A stretch of 58,998 nt of DNA, taken from Escherichia phage vB_Eco_SLUR25. This document shows positions 16,409-20,654 of the stretch, piece after piece. Within the stretch, counting starts at the first letter, position 1, and the number at the start of each line of letters is the position of its first letter. The notes under the pieces are model-generated. The model was given only the letters and a program-made list of their open reading frames with translations. It was not told where the DNA came from and ran no database searches. The stretch lies in sequence record LT907986.1. One strand, 5' to 3'. The position numbers and the translations under genes are program-made.

Positions 16409-18745
16409 TTATTTACTTAAGTCCTTGAAAACGCTCTCAATTGACTCATCTATATACCATCCCAATCCCCTGAAATTACGCTTCAACGCATCTTCACGCG
16501 TAACTGGAACGAGCGCACCCATATCTACAAGTTGTTTGATAGTAAGGTCTGTTGCAGTACCTGCTCCCATCCTGTGATTCTTGAATGCAGCTAGACCGTA
16601 AGTCCTGCGTGTGATAGTTGCCTTTGGAATAATACCGTCAACGCGCAGCTCCTTACGATCACATGCAATCTTACCGCCAAGATAGTCTTTGCAGACCTGA
16701 CAGATAGCCTTCACACGTGTTTCGTCATCACCGCCAATAGTACCTTTTTCCCATGCGTTGATCATAATGTCCTGACCGTGCGTAACAAAATCTACCGCCC
16801 ATTGCATGTGGTTTGGTTGCACCACAGGATTGATCCAGTTTTCCCCCACCGCTAACAGAGAAGCAAGACGCAAAGCTTTAAGGTGTGCACGGTTCCACGG
16901 CTGACGGATTGCTTCGTCTTTGGTTGCGTTGATGTGTTCATCACATAACAGGTTAAACTCCCGTTCAATCCTTTCAGCTTCAGGGCTTAACTGGACTGTG
17001 ACAGTTTGAAACTTCGCCATTGTTACTAAGGTGTGGTTAACAAGATGGCACACCATGTCCTTTAACTGCTGGGGCATTATAATCTCAGGGTTTTCATTTG
17101 CAGGAACTCGATCTCCTTCATATTGCACAATGTGGAAACGGGACAAGAAACCGTCTTCCATCATTTCACGAGTTAATGCTTCAAAGAAAGTGTCCGGTGT
17201 TGTTTCTCCCAGCACGCTGAACGCTACCCCTTCCATCGTTTTGGTATTATTAGCCTTATCAGAATATCCAATACCGCCAACAACATCCATTGCGCCAGAT
17301 TTTTGATATACATCTGTGATAGTTTGCTTTAGAGTATAGTTTGCAGTACCAGGCTGAGCTGTTGCCATACCTTTGATGGTTTTGCCAAACTCTCCGTTAA
17401 TGTTCACAAACGAACTATGATCCGCAAAACTTTTACGCAATGCAGGACCGGACGCATAGTTAGTCATGTCTACAAATTCATGAACTTGCGGTAATTGCTC
17501 CCCTACTTGCTTGCAAATATAGCTGGGTCCGGCGTGAAGCATCTCTTTACCCACACCTGAGCGAGCGATAAGCACAAAGTAACCGTTCAGCCCTGTGTTG
17601 GTGATAGTATTCCATACCTTACCGCACACACCAGACAGAAATGCTAACGATGCGGTGATTGCAATTTCTTTCACCGGACGTTGCGATGCTTTGTAGATGT
17701 ACTTCGCAAGCTCCCCAGCAAGCCCCGGCGGCCACTCAATAGCGGTTGCATCAATAGACGTACTTTCTGCAACTACTATTTGACCGGAAGGACTAACTGT
17801 GGTTACAGGCATCTCGGTTACTTGCTGCATTGTGCTGTGTGCGGCTTGCATACGGGCAGCGTAATCCCGCGCCAGCGCAGCTACGTTTTCCTGGGCAATG
17901 CGCTCACGCTCCATGCGACCTCGACACATACGCAAGCAACGGTCAATATGAACATTGTTCTTATTAGCCTTCTCACGTTTGCCCAGTGCACTATAACGGA
18001 ACAGACGGCGACATTGCTCATTACTTTCCGTGTAGAATGCATACATAGAAATGAGGGCAAGGTCTGCTTCAGACTGGGAAGGGAAACCCATTTCAACCCA
18101 TTCACCATTAAATAACCGCGCATACTTATCGCCGTTGTCTGCTTCAAGTGCACGCTGATGAATAGTTGCATCATCTTCTACCGGATCTTTTTCTACCAGT
18201 TCAATTTCATATGTCTTGCGCTGAAGATCAATTTCATTCACAAGCATAGTAAGGTAATGATCACGTTCTGCAACTGGTTTGTTGTAGACAGGATTACCAG
18301 TGCAGATAATAAAACGCTCCTGACTATAAACCTCGACACCATCACGTCGACGACCTTTACCGATGTTACCTCTTAACCACAGGTGAACACCCAAGCCTGA
18401 GCGACTCACTTCGGTGTAAGTATCGAACGCAGTCATGATCTGTTCGAAGCGGCGCAACTGTTCCGGCGTCGTGTGCTTTTTGGGATCCGGTTCATTGGTT
18501 GCATTCTTCACATCCAGGTCGATGCAGGTGAACGGGTCTTGTGCGGTAAGCACAAAGCCAATATAAGGTTTATTGAAATGAGCGGCACAACCTTTGGCAG
18601 CTTCAAACGTCATAAGCATATCCGGATCGGTAACGTCCGCCGCCATCAAACGTCCAATATCGTTATCCCATACGAGCGGTTTTTTATCCGCATCGGCGAC
18701 CGCCCATTGTGGGAAAGCTTTAATTTCAGCGGGAAACAGTTCCAT
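16409..18745 (-). CDS. DNA primase/helicase (primase-polymerase-like N-terminus, D5/DUF3987-like helicase C-terminus)
   Basis: 778 aa from ATG 18745; Walker A-like GVGKE; overall size and architecture typical of phage primase-helicases; family assignment from memory. Confidence 0.6.
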   Translation of the reverse strand: MELFPAEIKAFPQWAVADADKKPLVWDNDIGRLMAADVTDPDMLMTFEAAKGCAAHFNKPYIGFVLTAQDPFTCIDLDVKNATNEPDPKKHTTPEQLRRFEQIMTAFDTYTEVSRSGLGVHLWLRGNIGKGRRRDGVEVYSQERFIICTGNPVYNKPVAERDHYLTMLVNEIDLQRKTYEIELVEKDPVEDDATIHQRALEADNGDKYARLFNGEWVEMGFPSQSEADLALISMYAFYTESNEQCRRLFRYSALGKREKANKNNVHIDRCLRMCRGRMERERIAQENVAALARDYAARMQAAHSTMQQVTEMPVTTVSPSGQIVVAESTSIDATAIEWPPGLAGELAKYIYKASQRPVKEIAITASLAFLSGVCGKVWNTITNTGLNGYFVLIARSGVGKEMLHAGPSYICKQVGEQLPQVHEFVDMTNYASGPALRKSFADHSSFVNINGEFGKTIKGMATAQPGTANYTLKQTITDVYQKSGAMDVVGGIGYSDKANNTKTMEGVAFSVLGETTPDTFFEALTREMMEDGFLSRFHIVQYEGDRVPANENPEIIMPQQLKDMVCHLVNHTLVTMAKFQTVTVQLSPEAERIEREFNLLCDEHINATKDEAIRQPWNRAHLKALRLASLLAVGENWINPVVQPNHMQWAVDFVTHGQDIMINAWEKGTIGGDDETRVKAICQVCKDYLGGKIACDRKELRVDGIIPKATITRRTYGLAAFKNHRMGAGTATDLTIKQLVDMGALVPVTREDALKRNFRGLGWYIDESIESVFKDLSK

Positions 18746-18747
18746 TA

Positions 18748-18972
18748 TCAGCCTCGCATCATTGCAGGACCGCAAGACCGTAATGCTTCAACAAATTGTT
18801 CTGCATTACTTTTTATAGCTTTGACAGCATTTTGTGCATCCAGGTAAGATTCAAACTTGCCCAAATAAAGGATCTTACCAGCCACCATGACGTGAGCGGT
18901 ACGAGCAACGTTTCCACCAATGTAGTACCCGTTACGTTTTAAAAGTGTTAACTGTTCGTCATTAAGAGCCAT
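18748..18972 (-). CDS. hypothetical protein (possible AP2-like fold)
   Basis: ATG at 18972 (MALNDEQLTLL...) with GGAGGA upstream. Confidence 0.4.
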   Translation of the reverse strand: MALNDEQLTLLKRNGYYIGGNVARTAHVMVAGKILYLGKFESYLDAQNAVKAIKSNAEQFVEALRSCGPAMMRG

Positions 18973-19264
18973 AGATCTGTTTCCTCCGCCATTCTTCGTA
19001 TGCTGAATTATTTGCGTCATATACTTCACAAGCGTCTTTCATGCTGTCATACAGTCCAAGGAAAGTTCGCCTTGTTTCTCCGCCTACATCTACCCATGTT
19101 AATCGGGCGAGCCATTTACCAGTTTTATAATCGAAAGTAACTCCCTCACGCCCGCTCACATTTTCCCGCGGAACTCGGGGCTTTCGGCGTCCGAGTCCAC
19201 GACCTTTGAAATTACTACCCGGAACAGTCCTGCACTTACGACCCACGACCAACCTCCGGCACAA
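18962..19264 (-). CDS. AP2-domain DNA-binding protein (start TTG 19264 or GTG 19246)
   Basis: GVTFDYKTGKWLARLTWVDVGGETRRTFLGLYDSMKDACEVYD matches AP2 pattern; only non-ATG starts available; overlaps 3' end of upstream HTH gene. Confidence 0.5.
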   Translation of the reverse strand: MCRRLVVGRKCRTVPGSNFKGRGLGRRKPRVPRENVSGREGVTFDYKTGKWLARLTWVDVGGETRRTFLGLYDSMKDACEVYDANNSAYEEWRRKQIYGS

Positions 19265-19451
19265 CCCGGCCAGCGTGCAACATTAAGACAGGTTCTGCAA
19301 CTGCACGAACATAGACATACACGTTAGCAATCTTAACTTCGCCCGGCAGCTTACCGCGAAGCGAACATAATTTGCGACGACTAAGACCGAAGCGGTTTTC
19401 AATTTCTGATGTGGTTATGTATTTAAGATCAAATTCTTTTTGACAGTCCAT
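19236..19451 (-). CDS. small helix-turn-helix DNA-binding protein, first gene of leftward arm
   Basis: 71 aa; ITTSEIENRFGLSRRKLCSL is HTH-like; GGAGG RBS 5 nt before ATG at 19451. Confidence 0.5.
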   Translation of the reverse strand: MDCQKEFDLKYITTSEIENRFGLSRRKLCSLRGKLPGEVKIANVYVYVRAVAEPVLMLHAGRVVPEVGRGS

Positions 19452-20279
19452 ACCTACCTCCTAACAGCACTATACACAATCCATAGTAGGTCAGCCACAA
19501 TTATTCCACCTGAAGTTATAATGTGAGCGGATTGTTAATATATAACCACATGTGATGGAAAGTTTTGGGTAGGAATAGTTGGTGCTCCACAGTTTGCACA
19601 ATGTGACGGAAAGTTTTGTGAGTTTTGCAAAGTTTTGCGAAGTTTTGTGGTGCCACTGTTGCTAAAAACTTTAATAAAAACAATAAGTTGGTGCAGTAAG
19701 TTTTTGCGTTTTGGGGTAAAACGCATTTTTTACCCTAATACCCTAATCCCGACTGTTAGTAAAAAACGTATATAAATCAATAGGATAGATACTAAATGAA
19801 TAGTGAATGGAATGGGTAGAAATCCAAATGATGGAAGTGGAATAAATTATTCCTACTTGATGGAATAATGGAATCGGTACTCTGGAGCGCAAAAACCTAA
19901 AACTTTCAGTCAACAGACTAAAAACGGATAGAAACTAAAAGTTAATAAGTAATAGCATAAATATATATAAAATAAGGATTTATTAGTAATGTATATAGTA
20001 CCTATTGGTATTATTTGAATGTTTTTGGGTCTGCAACAAAAAGTCGCAAAACTCACAAAAAGTGAAAGATAACAATTCGTGACAAGATTGTTAATGGAAT
20101 AGGGTGTATGGATATACAGTATTATTCCAGATTCCGGAATAATTGGAATAATGGAATAAATTATTGAACTATTGTGATCGGAATGTATATCAAGCTATAA
20201 TGCGCTTAATCGCGGGATATTGGAGGAGGACTTTATTGCGCGGTTAACCGGACCAGTAGGAGGGCTGGCCCGGAGTAGT
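19452..20279. promoter_or_regulatory. 830-bp non-coding control region: phased GTTTTG repeats, TGGAATA palindromes, AT-rich core, 15-bp long-range inverted repeat (origin/early promoter region candidate)
   Basis: GTTTTG at 19561, 19612, 19621, 19631, 19642 (about 10-bp phasing); palindromes GGAATAAATTATTCC (19838..19852) and ATTCCGGAAT (20130..20139); TTTTGTGAGTTTTGC (19613..19627) inverted at 20045..20059; AT-rich 19925..20000. Confidence 0.5.
19705..19730 (+). terminator. terminator-like hairpin plus T-tract on plus strand inside control region
   Basis: GCGTTTT-GGGGT-AAAACGC followed by ATTTTTT. Confidence 0.4.
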
Positions 20280-20480
20280 TTAGAGCTGTACAGGTATGAA
20301 GTGGGCTAATGTGTCGTCGGACATGATACCCGACAATTTTTCGCTTACCCATTCGGACCAAATGCTATCCGGTTCCTGGCGGTGTACAAACCAGATTTCG
20401 GATGTGCCTTCTTTGCGCATCGGCTGCACTTCTACAAGAAACTTGTCCTGCATGAGGCGGGTGAAGCATACGCTGGTCAT
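20280..20480 (-). CDS. hypothetical protein
   Basis: 66 aa ORF; weak RBS. Confidence 0.35.
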   Translation of the reverse strand: MTSVCFTRLMQDKFLVEVQPMRKEGTSEIWFVHRQEPDSIWSEWVSEKLSGIMSDDTLAHFIPVQL

Positions 20481-20654
20481 TGGAACTGGCTTTTCGTGTT
20501 TATTGTAATAAGGAGTCAGTAATTTATTTCCGAAGTTAGCAACTTCATAAACAGTTCCTTTGCGAAGACCTCTGATGTCTGTGTAAGAGCGATAAATGTT
20601 TTCATGTTTACTCCTAGGGCTCCCGCAGAAGCCGTTGGTTGATGTGGTTATAGA

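Follow-up and report, generated by a model that had tools for sequence, protein, structure and literature searches.

The intergenic region at positions 19452–20279 of the Escherichia phage vB_Eco_SLUR25 sequence (LT907986.1) is filled with short repeats, which raises the question of what these repeats are for. The window, meaning the whole stretch of DNA that was analysed, comprises 58,998 nucleotides. With 828 bp, the region is the largest non-coding stretch of this 59-kb Seuratvirus genome, which was treated in the comparisons as Escherichia phage vB_Eco_SLUR63, under a crude ORF model. The initial annotation had described it as large, intergenic and repeat-dense; this description was borne out, and the repeats were found to be non-random. 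The region is bordered by a 66-aa ORF (20280–20480, minus strand) and by the head of an operon containing the following genes:

19236–19451, minus strand: gene for a 71-aa small DNA-binding-type protein (phrog_11967), the first gene of the operon
18962–19264, minus strand: gene for an AP2-like 100-aa protein, a candidate binder of the TGGAATA repeats
16409–18745, minus strand: primase-helicase gene (778 aa), encoding the proposed origin-binding initiator

Small ORFs within the region, which appear as genes in some records, were treated as non-coding because their reading frame was not kept in Salmonella phage STP-SP5. No tRNAs were found, and a search of E. coli genomes and plasmids for similar DNA, as expected of satellites sharing the origin, returned none. 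The region coincides with a module boundary, its left half being exchanged for a 242–280-aa gene and other DNA in Greed/CAjan-type phages. Decay of the 248-aa gene sited there in Greed/CAjan was rejected as the source of this left half, as no DNA similarity was present.

One repeat family, GTTTT(T)G, contributes 12–13 iterons of opposing orientation that flank an AT-rich core. Exact GTTTTG was present in seven copies, compared with 0.48 per 828 bp elsewhere, and this count was reached in none of 1000 dinucleotide shuffles. A slightly degenerate pattern gave 12 copies in the 828 bp against 0.84 expected from the rest of the sequence. The iterons and the core are arranged as follows:

19556–19649, plus strand: distal iteron array, with one copy at 19560–19569 and four tandem copies of AAGTTTTG(Y)G at 19611–19649 (period 9–10 nt)
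19698–19731, plus strand: two further iterons, the second making a 9-bp hairpin with a T run behind it (terminator-like, plus strand)
19888–19905, minus strand: two inverted iterons (CGCAAAAAC CTAAAAC) adjoining the AT-rich core on its left
19906–20020, no strand: AT-rich core, the proposed DNA-unwinding element, recognized by its duplex stability and conserved across iteron alleles
20021–20062, no single strand: core-right iterons, one direct (GTTTTTGGG) and three inverted (CAAAAAG, CGCAAAAC and CACAAAAAG)

The sequence TACCCTAA also occurs twice at 19731–19747, after the iteron pair. The five GTTTTG motifs at helical phasing that had been noted before correspond to five plus-strand copies starting at 19562, 19613, 19622, 19632 and 19642; their spacings are 51, 9, 10 and 10, so the phasing is roughly right for the tandem four. 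A perfect 15-bp inverted repeat had also been reported and is real, but its coordinates were one base off. The repeat, TTTTGTGAGTTTTGC, occupies 19614–19628 and 20046–20060 with 417 nt between the arms, and its right arm falls inside the core-right iterons. Taken alone, it is modestly unusual (28 of 1000 shuffles) and is composed of iterons. No DnaA boxes (TTATCCACA, at most one mismatch) were detected in 19000–20600, and neither TTWTNCACA nor an IHF consensus was present in the region, which in this respect does not have the DnaA boxes of a DnaA-dependent iteron origin of the plasmid or lambda-like kind.

The AT-rich core turned out to be more pronounced than originally claimed. Positions 19927–20026 form the least stable 100-bp duplex in the 59 kb, with a dG of -102.7 against a genome mean of -136.0 (sd 7.4), a deviation of 4.5 sd. 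Near invariance was seen for the core and for the TGGAATA blocks described below, at an overall identity of 74%; in the SLUR63-type group, the conservation profile had little resolution because 10 of 12 sequences were more than 92% identical. Strand composition also switches at the region. The cumulative GC skew has its minimum at 19510 and its maximum at 52903, and the minimum is apart from the transcription divergence point at ~22250. Coding-strand skew was negative in all five minus-strand ORFs between 20280 and 22250, an inversion that is based on five small ORFs only, some of which may not be genes, and positive in 33 of 35 other minus-strand genes and 35 of 40 plus-strand genes. Transcription and the repeats themselves also influence GC skew in phages.

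The protein that could act on such a site is encoded in the adjacent operon. The primase-helicase comprises an AEP prim-pol with a helix-bundle domain (aa 1–300), an MCM/ORC-like AAA+ ATPase (DUF3987) and a predicted C-terminal winged helix (aa ~696–778, coded at 16412–16660). In fold comparisons with its AlphaFold model (pLDDT 90.5), the N-terminal domain resembled the NrS-1 prim-pol and the C-terminal half resembled MCM/ORC/Cdc6. Judged from this model, the protein has the predicted architecture of a self-loading initiator helicase, including the winged helix. Its closest solved relative by sequence is SaPI5 PriRep5 (7OLA), the best PDB sequence match, and the match is limited to the primase domain. 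The winged helix of PriRep5 binds iterons placed on both sides of an AT-rich region (PMC9371898). At least 281 phage records contain the NrS-1/DUF3987 primase family, and the helicase half has at least 422 homologues; an IMG/VR scan with the primase alignment returned only seven loci.

Across ~25 related phages, changes in the iteron sequence at homologous positions were seen only where the C-terminal part of the primase-helicase had changed too. The GTTTT(T)G iteron occurs in SLUR63/Greed/CSP1/STP-SP5 phages around a conserved AT-rich core, GTTTATAG in CAjan/Seurat/slur01/KurtStettler phages and yong3, and (G/A)TTTTATAG in the metagenomic contigs L031 and L032. These classes correspond to clusters of the C-terminal domain (CTD, aa 696–778), which was 87–100% identical within a class and 33–51% identical between classes, whereas the primase domain (aa 1–300) was 92–100% identical across all compared E. 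coli and Salmonella phages and contigs. In L031, the ATPase core is SLUR63-like (86%), but the CTD (33%) and the iteron are different; between SLUR63 and CAjan, only the 3' half of the gene diverges, while the DNA on either side is 97–100% identical. The gene beside the primase 3' end was rejected as a co-varying candidate, being 97% identical between iteron classes, and the alleles of the HTH and accessory genes did not predict iteron type. Three iteron variants on four CTD clusters are a correlation that suggests an iteron specific to its cognate initiator. The sample comprised four CTD classes, and a common iteron was seen in yong3 and CAjan although their CTDs are just 46% identical. Co-inheritance of the replication module followed by homogenization of the intervening DNA could mimic such co-evolution. 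In the more distant Vid5, PSTCR4/7, L033 and L034, which have the same gene pair, no large gap was found upstream, so this location is not a family-wide rule.

Taken together, the region is likely an origin of bidirectional (theta-type) replication, of the kind with iterons and an AT-rich core, served by the phage's own self-loading primase-helicase. Operator or iteron arrays around a DNA-unwinding element had been suggested initially, and the origin half of that suggestion is supported by four independent computed lines: opposed iterons flank the genome's least stable duplex; the strand-composition switch sits at the region and not at the transcription divergence point; the iteron co-varies with the winged-helix part of the primase-helicase across recombinant phages; and the predicted architecture of this protein is that of a self-loading initiator helicase. 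As a possible mechanism, the C-terminal winged helix would bind the GTTTT(T)G iterons at 19888–19905, at 20021–20062 and in the distal array (19556–19715), and the bound protein would assemble into helicase rings and melt the core (~19906–20020). The 417-nt distance between the 15-bp inverted arms, far beyond the span of a double hexamer, was counted against this origin assignment.

No described origin for Seuratvirus or other Queuovirinae was found in the literature searched, and the region is most likely a new example of an origin kind that is already known. SaPI/PICI Rep or PriRep origins are served by a helicase that is fused to a primase and carries a winged helix at its C-terminus, as predicted here. 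Iteron clusters of this kind are present in the region, and, as in SaPI/PICI origins, short iterons with opposed copies lie on both sides of a central AT-rich region (PMC9371898). The iteron specificity of those origins is tied to the cognate initiator (PMC9371898); the likeness here consists of sequence covariation. Several differences exist. The ATPase half of the phage protein is most like MCM/ORC by fold. The SaPI origin lies immediately downstream of rep, whereas the region here precedes the operon and is 0.7 kb away from where the primase-helicase gene starts; the downstream location is customary in SaPIs and not something that the mechanism demands. Moreover, the present region is much larger (~800 bp), includes iterons in a distal array as well as a second repeat family that is module-specific, and belongs to a lytic phage instead of a satellite.

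Phage P4 offers a second parallel. Its alpha protein combines a primase, a helicase and a C-terminal winged-helix origin-binding domain in one polypeptide, and P4 ori and crr carry octamer-type iterons in two separate clusters, both needed in cis. The single polypeptide with primase, helicase and predicted winged helix and the separate iteron clusters are shared by the phage studied here. However, the P4 alpha primase is of the DnaG/TOPRIM type and the distance between ori and crr is ~4.5 kb, whereas the primase here is an AEP and the clusters are 250–400 bp apart. No sequence similarity to P4 alpha was detected. The archaeal plasmid pRN1 has a comparable gene order in orf56/orf904, where the gene for a small DNA-binding repressor comes before the prim-pol/helicase gene. 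Its essential cis regions are reported to be a promoter region of 64 bp on the upstream side of the operon and 166 bp on the downstream side, and not an upstream iteron/AT-rich region (PMC4234260).

Once mapped, an origin with matched initiator and iteron alleles would provide a natural specificity-swap series for studying how NrS-1/DUF3987 primase-helicases recognize and open DNA. It would also provide an engineering handle for these BASEL-collection phages and a test of whether origin specificity restricts recombination between co-infecting relatives.

The second repeat family bears on the main competing explanation, and its sites are listed with the promoter-like elements:

19500–19527, minus strand: sigma-70-like promoter match for the 71-aa/AP2/primase operon (9 of 12 consensus positions, TG present)
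19800–19880, no strand: left TGGAAT(A) cluster with the palindrome GGAATAAATTATTCC (19839–19853), nearly invariant in STP-SP5 and L031
20092–20165, no strand: right TGGAATA cluster with the palindrome ATTCCGGAAT (20131–20140)
20172–20201, plus strand: rightward sigma-70-like promoter TTGTGA-18-TATAAT (consensus match)
20206–20273, no strand: pair of stable hairpins, their loops of GGAGG type, located where the upstream gene has its 3' end (z -3.4)

At least ten TGGAATA motifs had been claimed; the repeats are real, but the exact heptamer occurs seven times on both strands together, and it is the GGAATA core that occurs 10 times (GGAAT, 14 times). The counts of this family were reached by 0 of 1000 shuffles. 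Both palindromes noted earlier are present, each unique in the genome. Linking the repeats to the HTH and AP2 proteins proved partly correct: the GTTTTG family pairs with the primase-helicase, and TGGAATA alone travels with the AP2-type module. The AP2-like gene co-occurs with TGGAAT repeats, and the right cluster is replaced in phages that do not have the module. The AP2-like protein matched Pfam AP2 with an E value of 2.8e-4, below the gathering score, and its PHROG match is the AP2 part of HNH endonucleases. The 71-aa protein, presumably of HTH fold, is annotated as 'regulatory protein cox' in one related record; it was rejected as the primary iteron-binder candidate because its alleles diverge from iteron type. 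Pfam, NCBIfam and PDB searches gave nothing significant for the 71-aa, 93-aa and 248-aa proteins.

These features could be explained if the region were purely a transcriptional control region, with the repeats acting as operators of an early/middle switch for the 71-aa, AP2-like or other regulators and with the origin elsewhere. The operon immediately downstream of the region starts with genes for small DNA-binding-type proteins, a TGGAATA copy overlaps the extended -10 of the promoter match at 19527–19500, and the second promoter-like site faces right with hexamers retained in yong3 and STP-SP5, where it precedes an ORF. The accessory gene module is accompanied by the TGGAATA, ATAGTG and CCCTATA families, and direct-repeat arrays are typical of Cox-like regulators. 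Nevertheless, the GTTTTG family tracks the helicase C-terminal domain and not the regulators, promoter matches are no more numerous than in shuffles (4 against a mean of 4.1), and the extreme instability of the core and the skew switch would be left unaccounted for. An exclusively transcriptional role is therefore unlikely. Since control and origin functions can coexist, it is partly absorbed into the origin assignment, in which the TGGAATA sites are probably an auxiliary or regulatory set. The clusters flanking the core, and the copy over the -10 of the operon promoter, would probably be bound by the AP2-like or the 71-aa protein.

It is considerably less probable that the region is another cis-acting winged-helix site (centromere-like, pairing, copy-control or packaging-related) instead of an initiation site. 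In its fold, the CTD is also similar to TubR and to further winged helices of the centromere or regulator kind, and the distal tandem array has no clear initiation role. However, this winged helix is part of a primase-helicase instead of a partition system, no sign of a plasmid or prophage state was met in the record or in the literature consulted, and structural and terminase genes are far from the region.

A non-coding RNA locus, in which one or several small RNAs, such as a GGA-rich protein-sponge RNA, would contain the repeats, appears slightly more improbable still. The plus strand carries the terminator-like hairpin and T run (19705–19731) and a stable two-hairpin element after the conserved promoter (20206–20290), and GGA motifs are numerous on one strand. 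The two hairpins could be a terminator or a small RNA; a terminator is annotated at this element in one related record. In contrast, the iteron segment folded no better than shuffles (z -0.03), the 19705 hairpin was not kept in STP-SP5, and the right-end hairpins gave a weak consensus fold across five phages. Rfam gave no match at the gathering score in the whole window, nor at E up to 1 in 19300–20400, and the motifs, present in either orientation, change along with a protein domain. Equally implausible is a non-functional mosaic junction left at a recombination or homing-endonuclease hotspot, with repeats as decay products or slippage, since the module boundary and the HNH endonuclease genes close by in several relatives are outweighed by non-homologous replacements that retain the architecture and an iteron type matching their own helicase, by the near invariance of the core and TGGAATA blocks, and by motif counts far above shuffles.

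A side observation concerns priming. The octamer TGTGGTTA occurs 46 times genome-wide against ~2 expected (~22-fold over-represented). The N-terminal domain of the NrS-1 primase-polymerase is homologous to that of the present protein by sequence and fold, and NrS-1 recognizes 5'-TTTGGTTA-3' or 5'-GTG(G/A)-3' (PMC8718748). The octamer agrees with TTTGGTTA in 7 of the 8 positions, and GTGG is part of it. In the comparison with pRN1, the AEP helix-bundle domain is reported to read a GTG template motif (PMC4234260; PMC8718748). Neither over-representation of the recognition site nor an origin role was described for NrS-1 (PMC8718748); here, TGTGGTTA is a putative priming site. Its copies near the core are:

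19410–19417, plus strand: TGTGGTTA, putative primase recognition site inside the 71-aa gene
19543–19550, minus strand: TGTGGTTA, the nearest copy left of the core, in an orientation suiting rightward priming by the NrS-1 rule (PMC8718748)
20643–20650, plus strand: TGTGGTTA, the nearest copy right of the core, in an orientation suiting leftward priming

Following core melting, the fused AEP primase would begin DNA at the nearest sites, 19543 on the bottom strand and 20643 on the top strand. Both face the core, and therefore each first primer could become the leading strand of the opposite fork. It is conceivable, though somewhat short of probable, that one protein uses a two-level DNA code, its winged-helix tail reading lineage-specific origin iterons and its AEP domain an 8-nt priming signal spread genome-wide by selection. 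If true, the octamer would define a new class of phage genome-wide 'architectural' sequence, an over-represented site for primase recognition, alongside Chi and KOPS in bacteria, and lagging-strand start-site choice would be directly testable in a simple system. A convergent octamer pair brackets the origin core in all 13 phages examined. The variant TGTGGGCA occurs in Halfdan, which is without annotated 7-deazaguanine genes, and TGTGGTCA occurs in Pseudomonas phage NP1 and Nonagvirus JenP1. The latter, which speaks for the generality of the origin arrangement, has a comparable 940-nt gap with TTTTTGC-type repeats, a GC-skew minimum at the gap edge and a convergent octamer pair flanking the gap.

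The window holds the complete genome of Escherichia phage vB_Eco_SLUR63 (Seuratvirus, Queuovirinae), as a circular permutation of record LR025196.1. Leftward genes run from ~22250 to position 1 and then from 58998 down to 52789, and rightward genes run from ~22300 to 52544. Under a crude ORF model, 19452-20279 was the largest non-coding stretch of the genome, located ~2 kb into the leftward arm, and this region is probably the phage's bidirectional replication origin. A four-gene operon begins at its left side. It encodes a 71-aa small protein (phrog_11967), which one relative annotates as a 'cox-like regulatory protein'; a 100-aa protein whose AP2 match falls below threshold; a 93-aa protein; and a 778-aa primase-helicase. 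The gene on the right (20280-20606) encodes 108 aa in Skure and other relatives, compared with only a 66-aa ORF here; the difference could stem from a frameshift, a mutation to a stop codon or an error in assembly.

Features in and around the region
19410-19417, plus strand: further copy of the octamer TGTGGTTA near the region
19527-19500, minus strand: sigma-70-like site with an extended -10 that is overlapped by a TGGAATA copy
19543-19550, minus strand: octamer, left member of a convergent pair around the AT-rich core
19705-19731, plus strand: hairpin with a T run, including one iteron
20172-20201, rightward: sigma-70-like TTGTGA-18-TATAAT site, directed against the flanking genes
20206-20273: pair of stable hairpins (z -3.4) with GGAGG-type motifs in their loops (CCUCC on the opposite strand)
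20280-20480: 66-aa ORF (phrog_25978) ending at the right side of the region, without annotation in the SLUR63 record
20643-20650, plus strand: octamer, right member of the convergent pair

Two repeat families, GTTTT(T)G iterons (family 1) and TGGAAT(A) motifs (family 2), were concentrated in the region. GTTTTG occurred in seven copies versus 0.48 per 828 bp elsewhere, four of the seven genomic copies of AAGTTTTG were located here, and GGAATA and GGAAT were counted 10 and 14 times; none of 1000 dinucleotide-preserving shuffles reached the observed counts. Four GTTTTG-type copies were arranged in tandem at 19613-19649 with a period of 9-10 nt, and a slightly degenerate iteron pattern yielded 12 copies (0.84 expected), eight on the top and four on the bottom strand, with a weaker thirteenth at 19897-19904. 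The initial annotation had claimed at least ten TGGAATA copies, of which seven were counted, and two palindromes, both of which were present and unique in the genome. Its perfect 15-bp inverted repeat also exists, shifted by one base to 19614-19628 and 20046-20060, and the arms are composed of the same GTTTTG-type repeat. The AT-rich core proved more remarkable than had been proposed, as 19927-20026 is the least stable 100-bp duplex of the whole genome (dG -102.7 kcal/mol versus a mean of -136.0, sd 7.4), the next least stable window beyond the region being at -113.7.

The homologous region was gathered from ~25 phages and contigs. When the core sequences of eight representatives were aligned, the AT-rich centre was conserved (…ATATATATAAAATAAGG…TATATAGT…), and the iteron sequence differed between phages at identical flanking positions. 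SLUR63, Greed, STP-SP5 and CSP1 carried GTTTT(T)G; CAjan, KurtStettler with its relatives and Hafnia phage yong3 carried GTTTATAG; and the metagenomic contigs L031 and L032 carried (G/A)TTTTATAG. In a sample of only four classes of the primase-helicase C-terminal domain (CTD, aa 696-778), where the same iteron occurs in yong3 and CAjan, whose CTDs are 46% identical, the iteron classes matched the CTD clusters, with 87-100% identity within a class and 33-51% from one class to another. Over the primase domain (aa 1-300), all E. coli and Salmonella members of the comparison, phages and contigs alike, were 92-100% identical. Between SLUR63 and CAjan, the protein was 100% identical over aa 31-300, differed at one residue in aa 1-30 and fell to 26-67% identity across most of aa 360-777. 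At the stop codon itself the DNA was back at 97% identity, the value also measured for the following gene. The 3' half of the gene (16412-17800) is a sharp recombination mosaic within a single gene. In L031, a SLUR63-like ATPase core (86%) is joined to an unrelated CTD (33%) and the iteron also differs, which places the iteron determinant in the last 80-140 residues. Among the phages and contigs compared, neither the alleles of the 71-aa protein nor the accessory alleles predicted the iteron type. The motif at 19.5-20.1 kb therefore co-varies with the protein segment coded at 16.4-16.8 kb across ~2.5 kb of near-identical DNA, and such covariation is what a specificity pairing of initiator and iteron would predict. 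Alternatively, motif and CTD may have been inherited together and the intervening DNA homogenised afterwards, a history that would likewise imply selection holding the pair together.

The initiator candidate contained an NrS-1 helix-bundle domain and DUF3987 by Pfam, and its top PDB sequence matches were SaPI5 PriRep5 (7OLA; primase domain only) and NrS-1 prim-pol. Foldseek searches with an AlphaFold model (77 homologues, pLDDT 90.5) matched the predicted N-terminus to NrS-1 prim-pol and the C-terminal half to MCM, ORC and Cdc6 chains, suggesting a winged helix behind an AAA+ domain. The winged helix of SaPI Rep/PriRep binds iterons of five or six nucleotides that flank a central AT-rich region, with at least two iterons per side in opposite directions, and SaPI Rep loads itself without a loader (PMC9371898). 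The region shares this anatomy of iterons flanking an AT-rich centre and would work in kind like SaPI Rep/PriRep origins: the winged-helix tails of the primase-helicase would bind the iterons, the protein would self-load, the AT-rich core would then melt, and the fused AEP primase would start DNA at flanking octamers. By analogy with plasmid iterons, the distal tandem array (19556-19715) may serve operon autoregulation, or else protein recruitment. The region is also alike in kind to the P4 alpha system with ori and crr. It differs in lying upstream of the operon, in size, in having a bipartite iteron layout and a second repeat family, and in the modelled MCM/ORC-like ATPase fold. Iteron origins with self-loading helicases are already well known. 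The initial annotation's interpretation of the region as a candidate origin is supported, except that the GTTTTG repeats pair with the helicase rather than with the HTH or AP2 proteins.

Neither a DnaA nor an IHF consensus was found in the region. The DnaA box check brought up the octamer TGTGGTTA (reverse complement TAACCACA), by far the most over-represented 8-mer of the genome, with 46 copies versus 2.05 ± 1.43 in shuffles. Copies occurred on both strands (with a weak genome-wide bias of 28:18 in the lagging-template sense), mostly within genes, about once per 1.3 kb and without conserved flanks. Every examined locus of phages with this primase-helicase family showed such enrichment or a variant octamer, at 0.2-1.45 copies per kb in enriched loci versus 0.03 by chance. 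Nonagvirus JenP1 contained TGTGGTCA 31 times and TGTGGTTA 19 times, Pseudomonas phage NP1 (58% GC) contained TGTGGTCA 33 times, and Halfdan, where queuosine/DpdA (7-deazaguanine) genes are not annotated, contained TGTGGGCA 20 times (among 34 TGTGGNNN). NrS-1 prim-pol was shown by experiment to recognise 5'-TTTGGTTA-3' and 5'-GTG(G/A)-3' and to begin synthesis at the base immediately 5' of the site (PMC8718748). TGTGGTTA matches TTTGGTTA at seven of eight positions and contains GTGG. When this start rule was applied to 13 representative phages covering all module types, the octamer closest to the core on its left side (-414 to -472; bottom strand in 13/13) was predicted to prime rightward, and the closest one on the right (+542 to +1384; top strand in 13/13) leftward. 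The convergent pair was kept even amid non-homologous surrounding DNA, and JenP1 showed the same arrangement. A bidirectional origin would need such a pair if the first primer synthesised in the wake of each departing helicase goes on to serve as the other fork's leading strand. A link between the octamer and phages was not found in the literature searched. This octamer is the most novel lead of the analysis.

Strand composition also agreed with an origin here. The cumulative GC skew reached its global maximum at 52903, where the two transcription arms converge, and its global minimum at 19510, at the region and away from the transcription divergence (~22250). The coding strand was G-rich in 35 of 40 rightward genes; for leftward genes it was G-rich in 33 of the 35 situated left of the region and C-rich in all five ORFs between 20280 and 22250. 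This pattern is expected if the top strand turns into the leading strand just right of ~19.9 kb; with so small a sample, and with repeats adding to the local skew, it is supportive rather than decisive. JenP1 (L036, 41001-41940) has a comparable 940-nt non-coding gap 2.9 kb upstream of its primase gene, with TTTTTGC/GCAAAA repeats, direct repeats and an AT-rich centre, and its cumulative GC-skew minimum, over the 50 kb examined, lies at the gap's left edge.

The operon and its upstream DNA were mosaic among the ~25 phages and contigs. SLUR63-type phages carried the 71-aa gene and an AP2-type gene; the Greed/CSP1, KurtStettler and CAjan/Seurat types instead had a 242-280-aa gene (phrog_27223) inserted where the 71-aa homologue borders the non-coding region. 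Only 19890-20066 and 20158-20280 were alignable with the Greed and CAjan types. Family 2 repeats changed together with the accessory module, and family 1 repeats did not. TGGAAT(A) occurred only alongside AP2-type proteins, in the SLUR63 group, Salmonella phage STP-SP5 (a different, 151-aa AP2-like protein) and L031 (a 195-aa protein), whereas ATAGTG accompanied the Greed and Kurt variants and CCCTATA the CAjan variant. The TGGAATA clusters bracket the core symmetrically and touch the putative operon promoter, and probably serve the AP2-like or the 71-aa protein as auxiliary or autoregulatory sites.

The promoter-like site at 19527-19500 could, from its sequence, drive the 71-aa/AP2/primase-helicase operon. 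The site at 20172-20201 is a closer match, and yong3 and STP-SP5 retain its hexamers, there upstream of an ORF. Promoter matches in the region were no commoner than in shuffles, so both sites are only leads. The hairpin at 19705-19731 was not conserved in STP-SP5. The consensus fold of the right-end hairpins over five phages was weak, and one related record annotates a terminator there; promoter and hairpins together (20172-20290) could represent a small antisense RNA or the upstream gene's terminator. The region had no Rfam match. In every module type, 19698-19750 and its equivalents consist of an iteron pair followed by a short G-run/C-run element (GTTTTGGGGTAAAACGC…ACCC here, then TACCCTAA twice; GGGGGAGACCCC in Greed). 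The sequence ATGTGAGCGGATTGTTAATAT at 19519-19539, which overlaps the -35 of the putative operon promoter, was conserved in STP-SP5, and two weaker copies of its 17-mer were located at 20079 and 20174. Eleven consecutive bases of it (TGTGAGCGGAT) are shared with the E. coli lac operator, a likeness that is probably coincidental.
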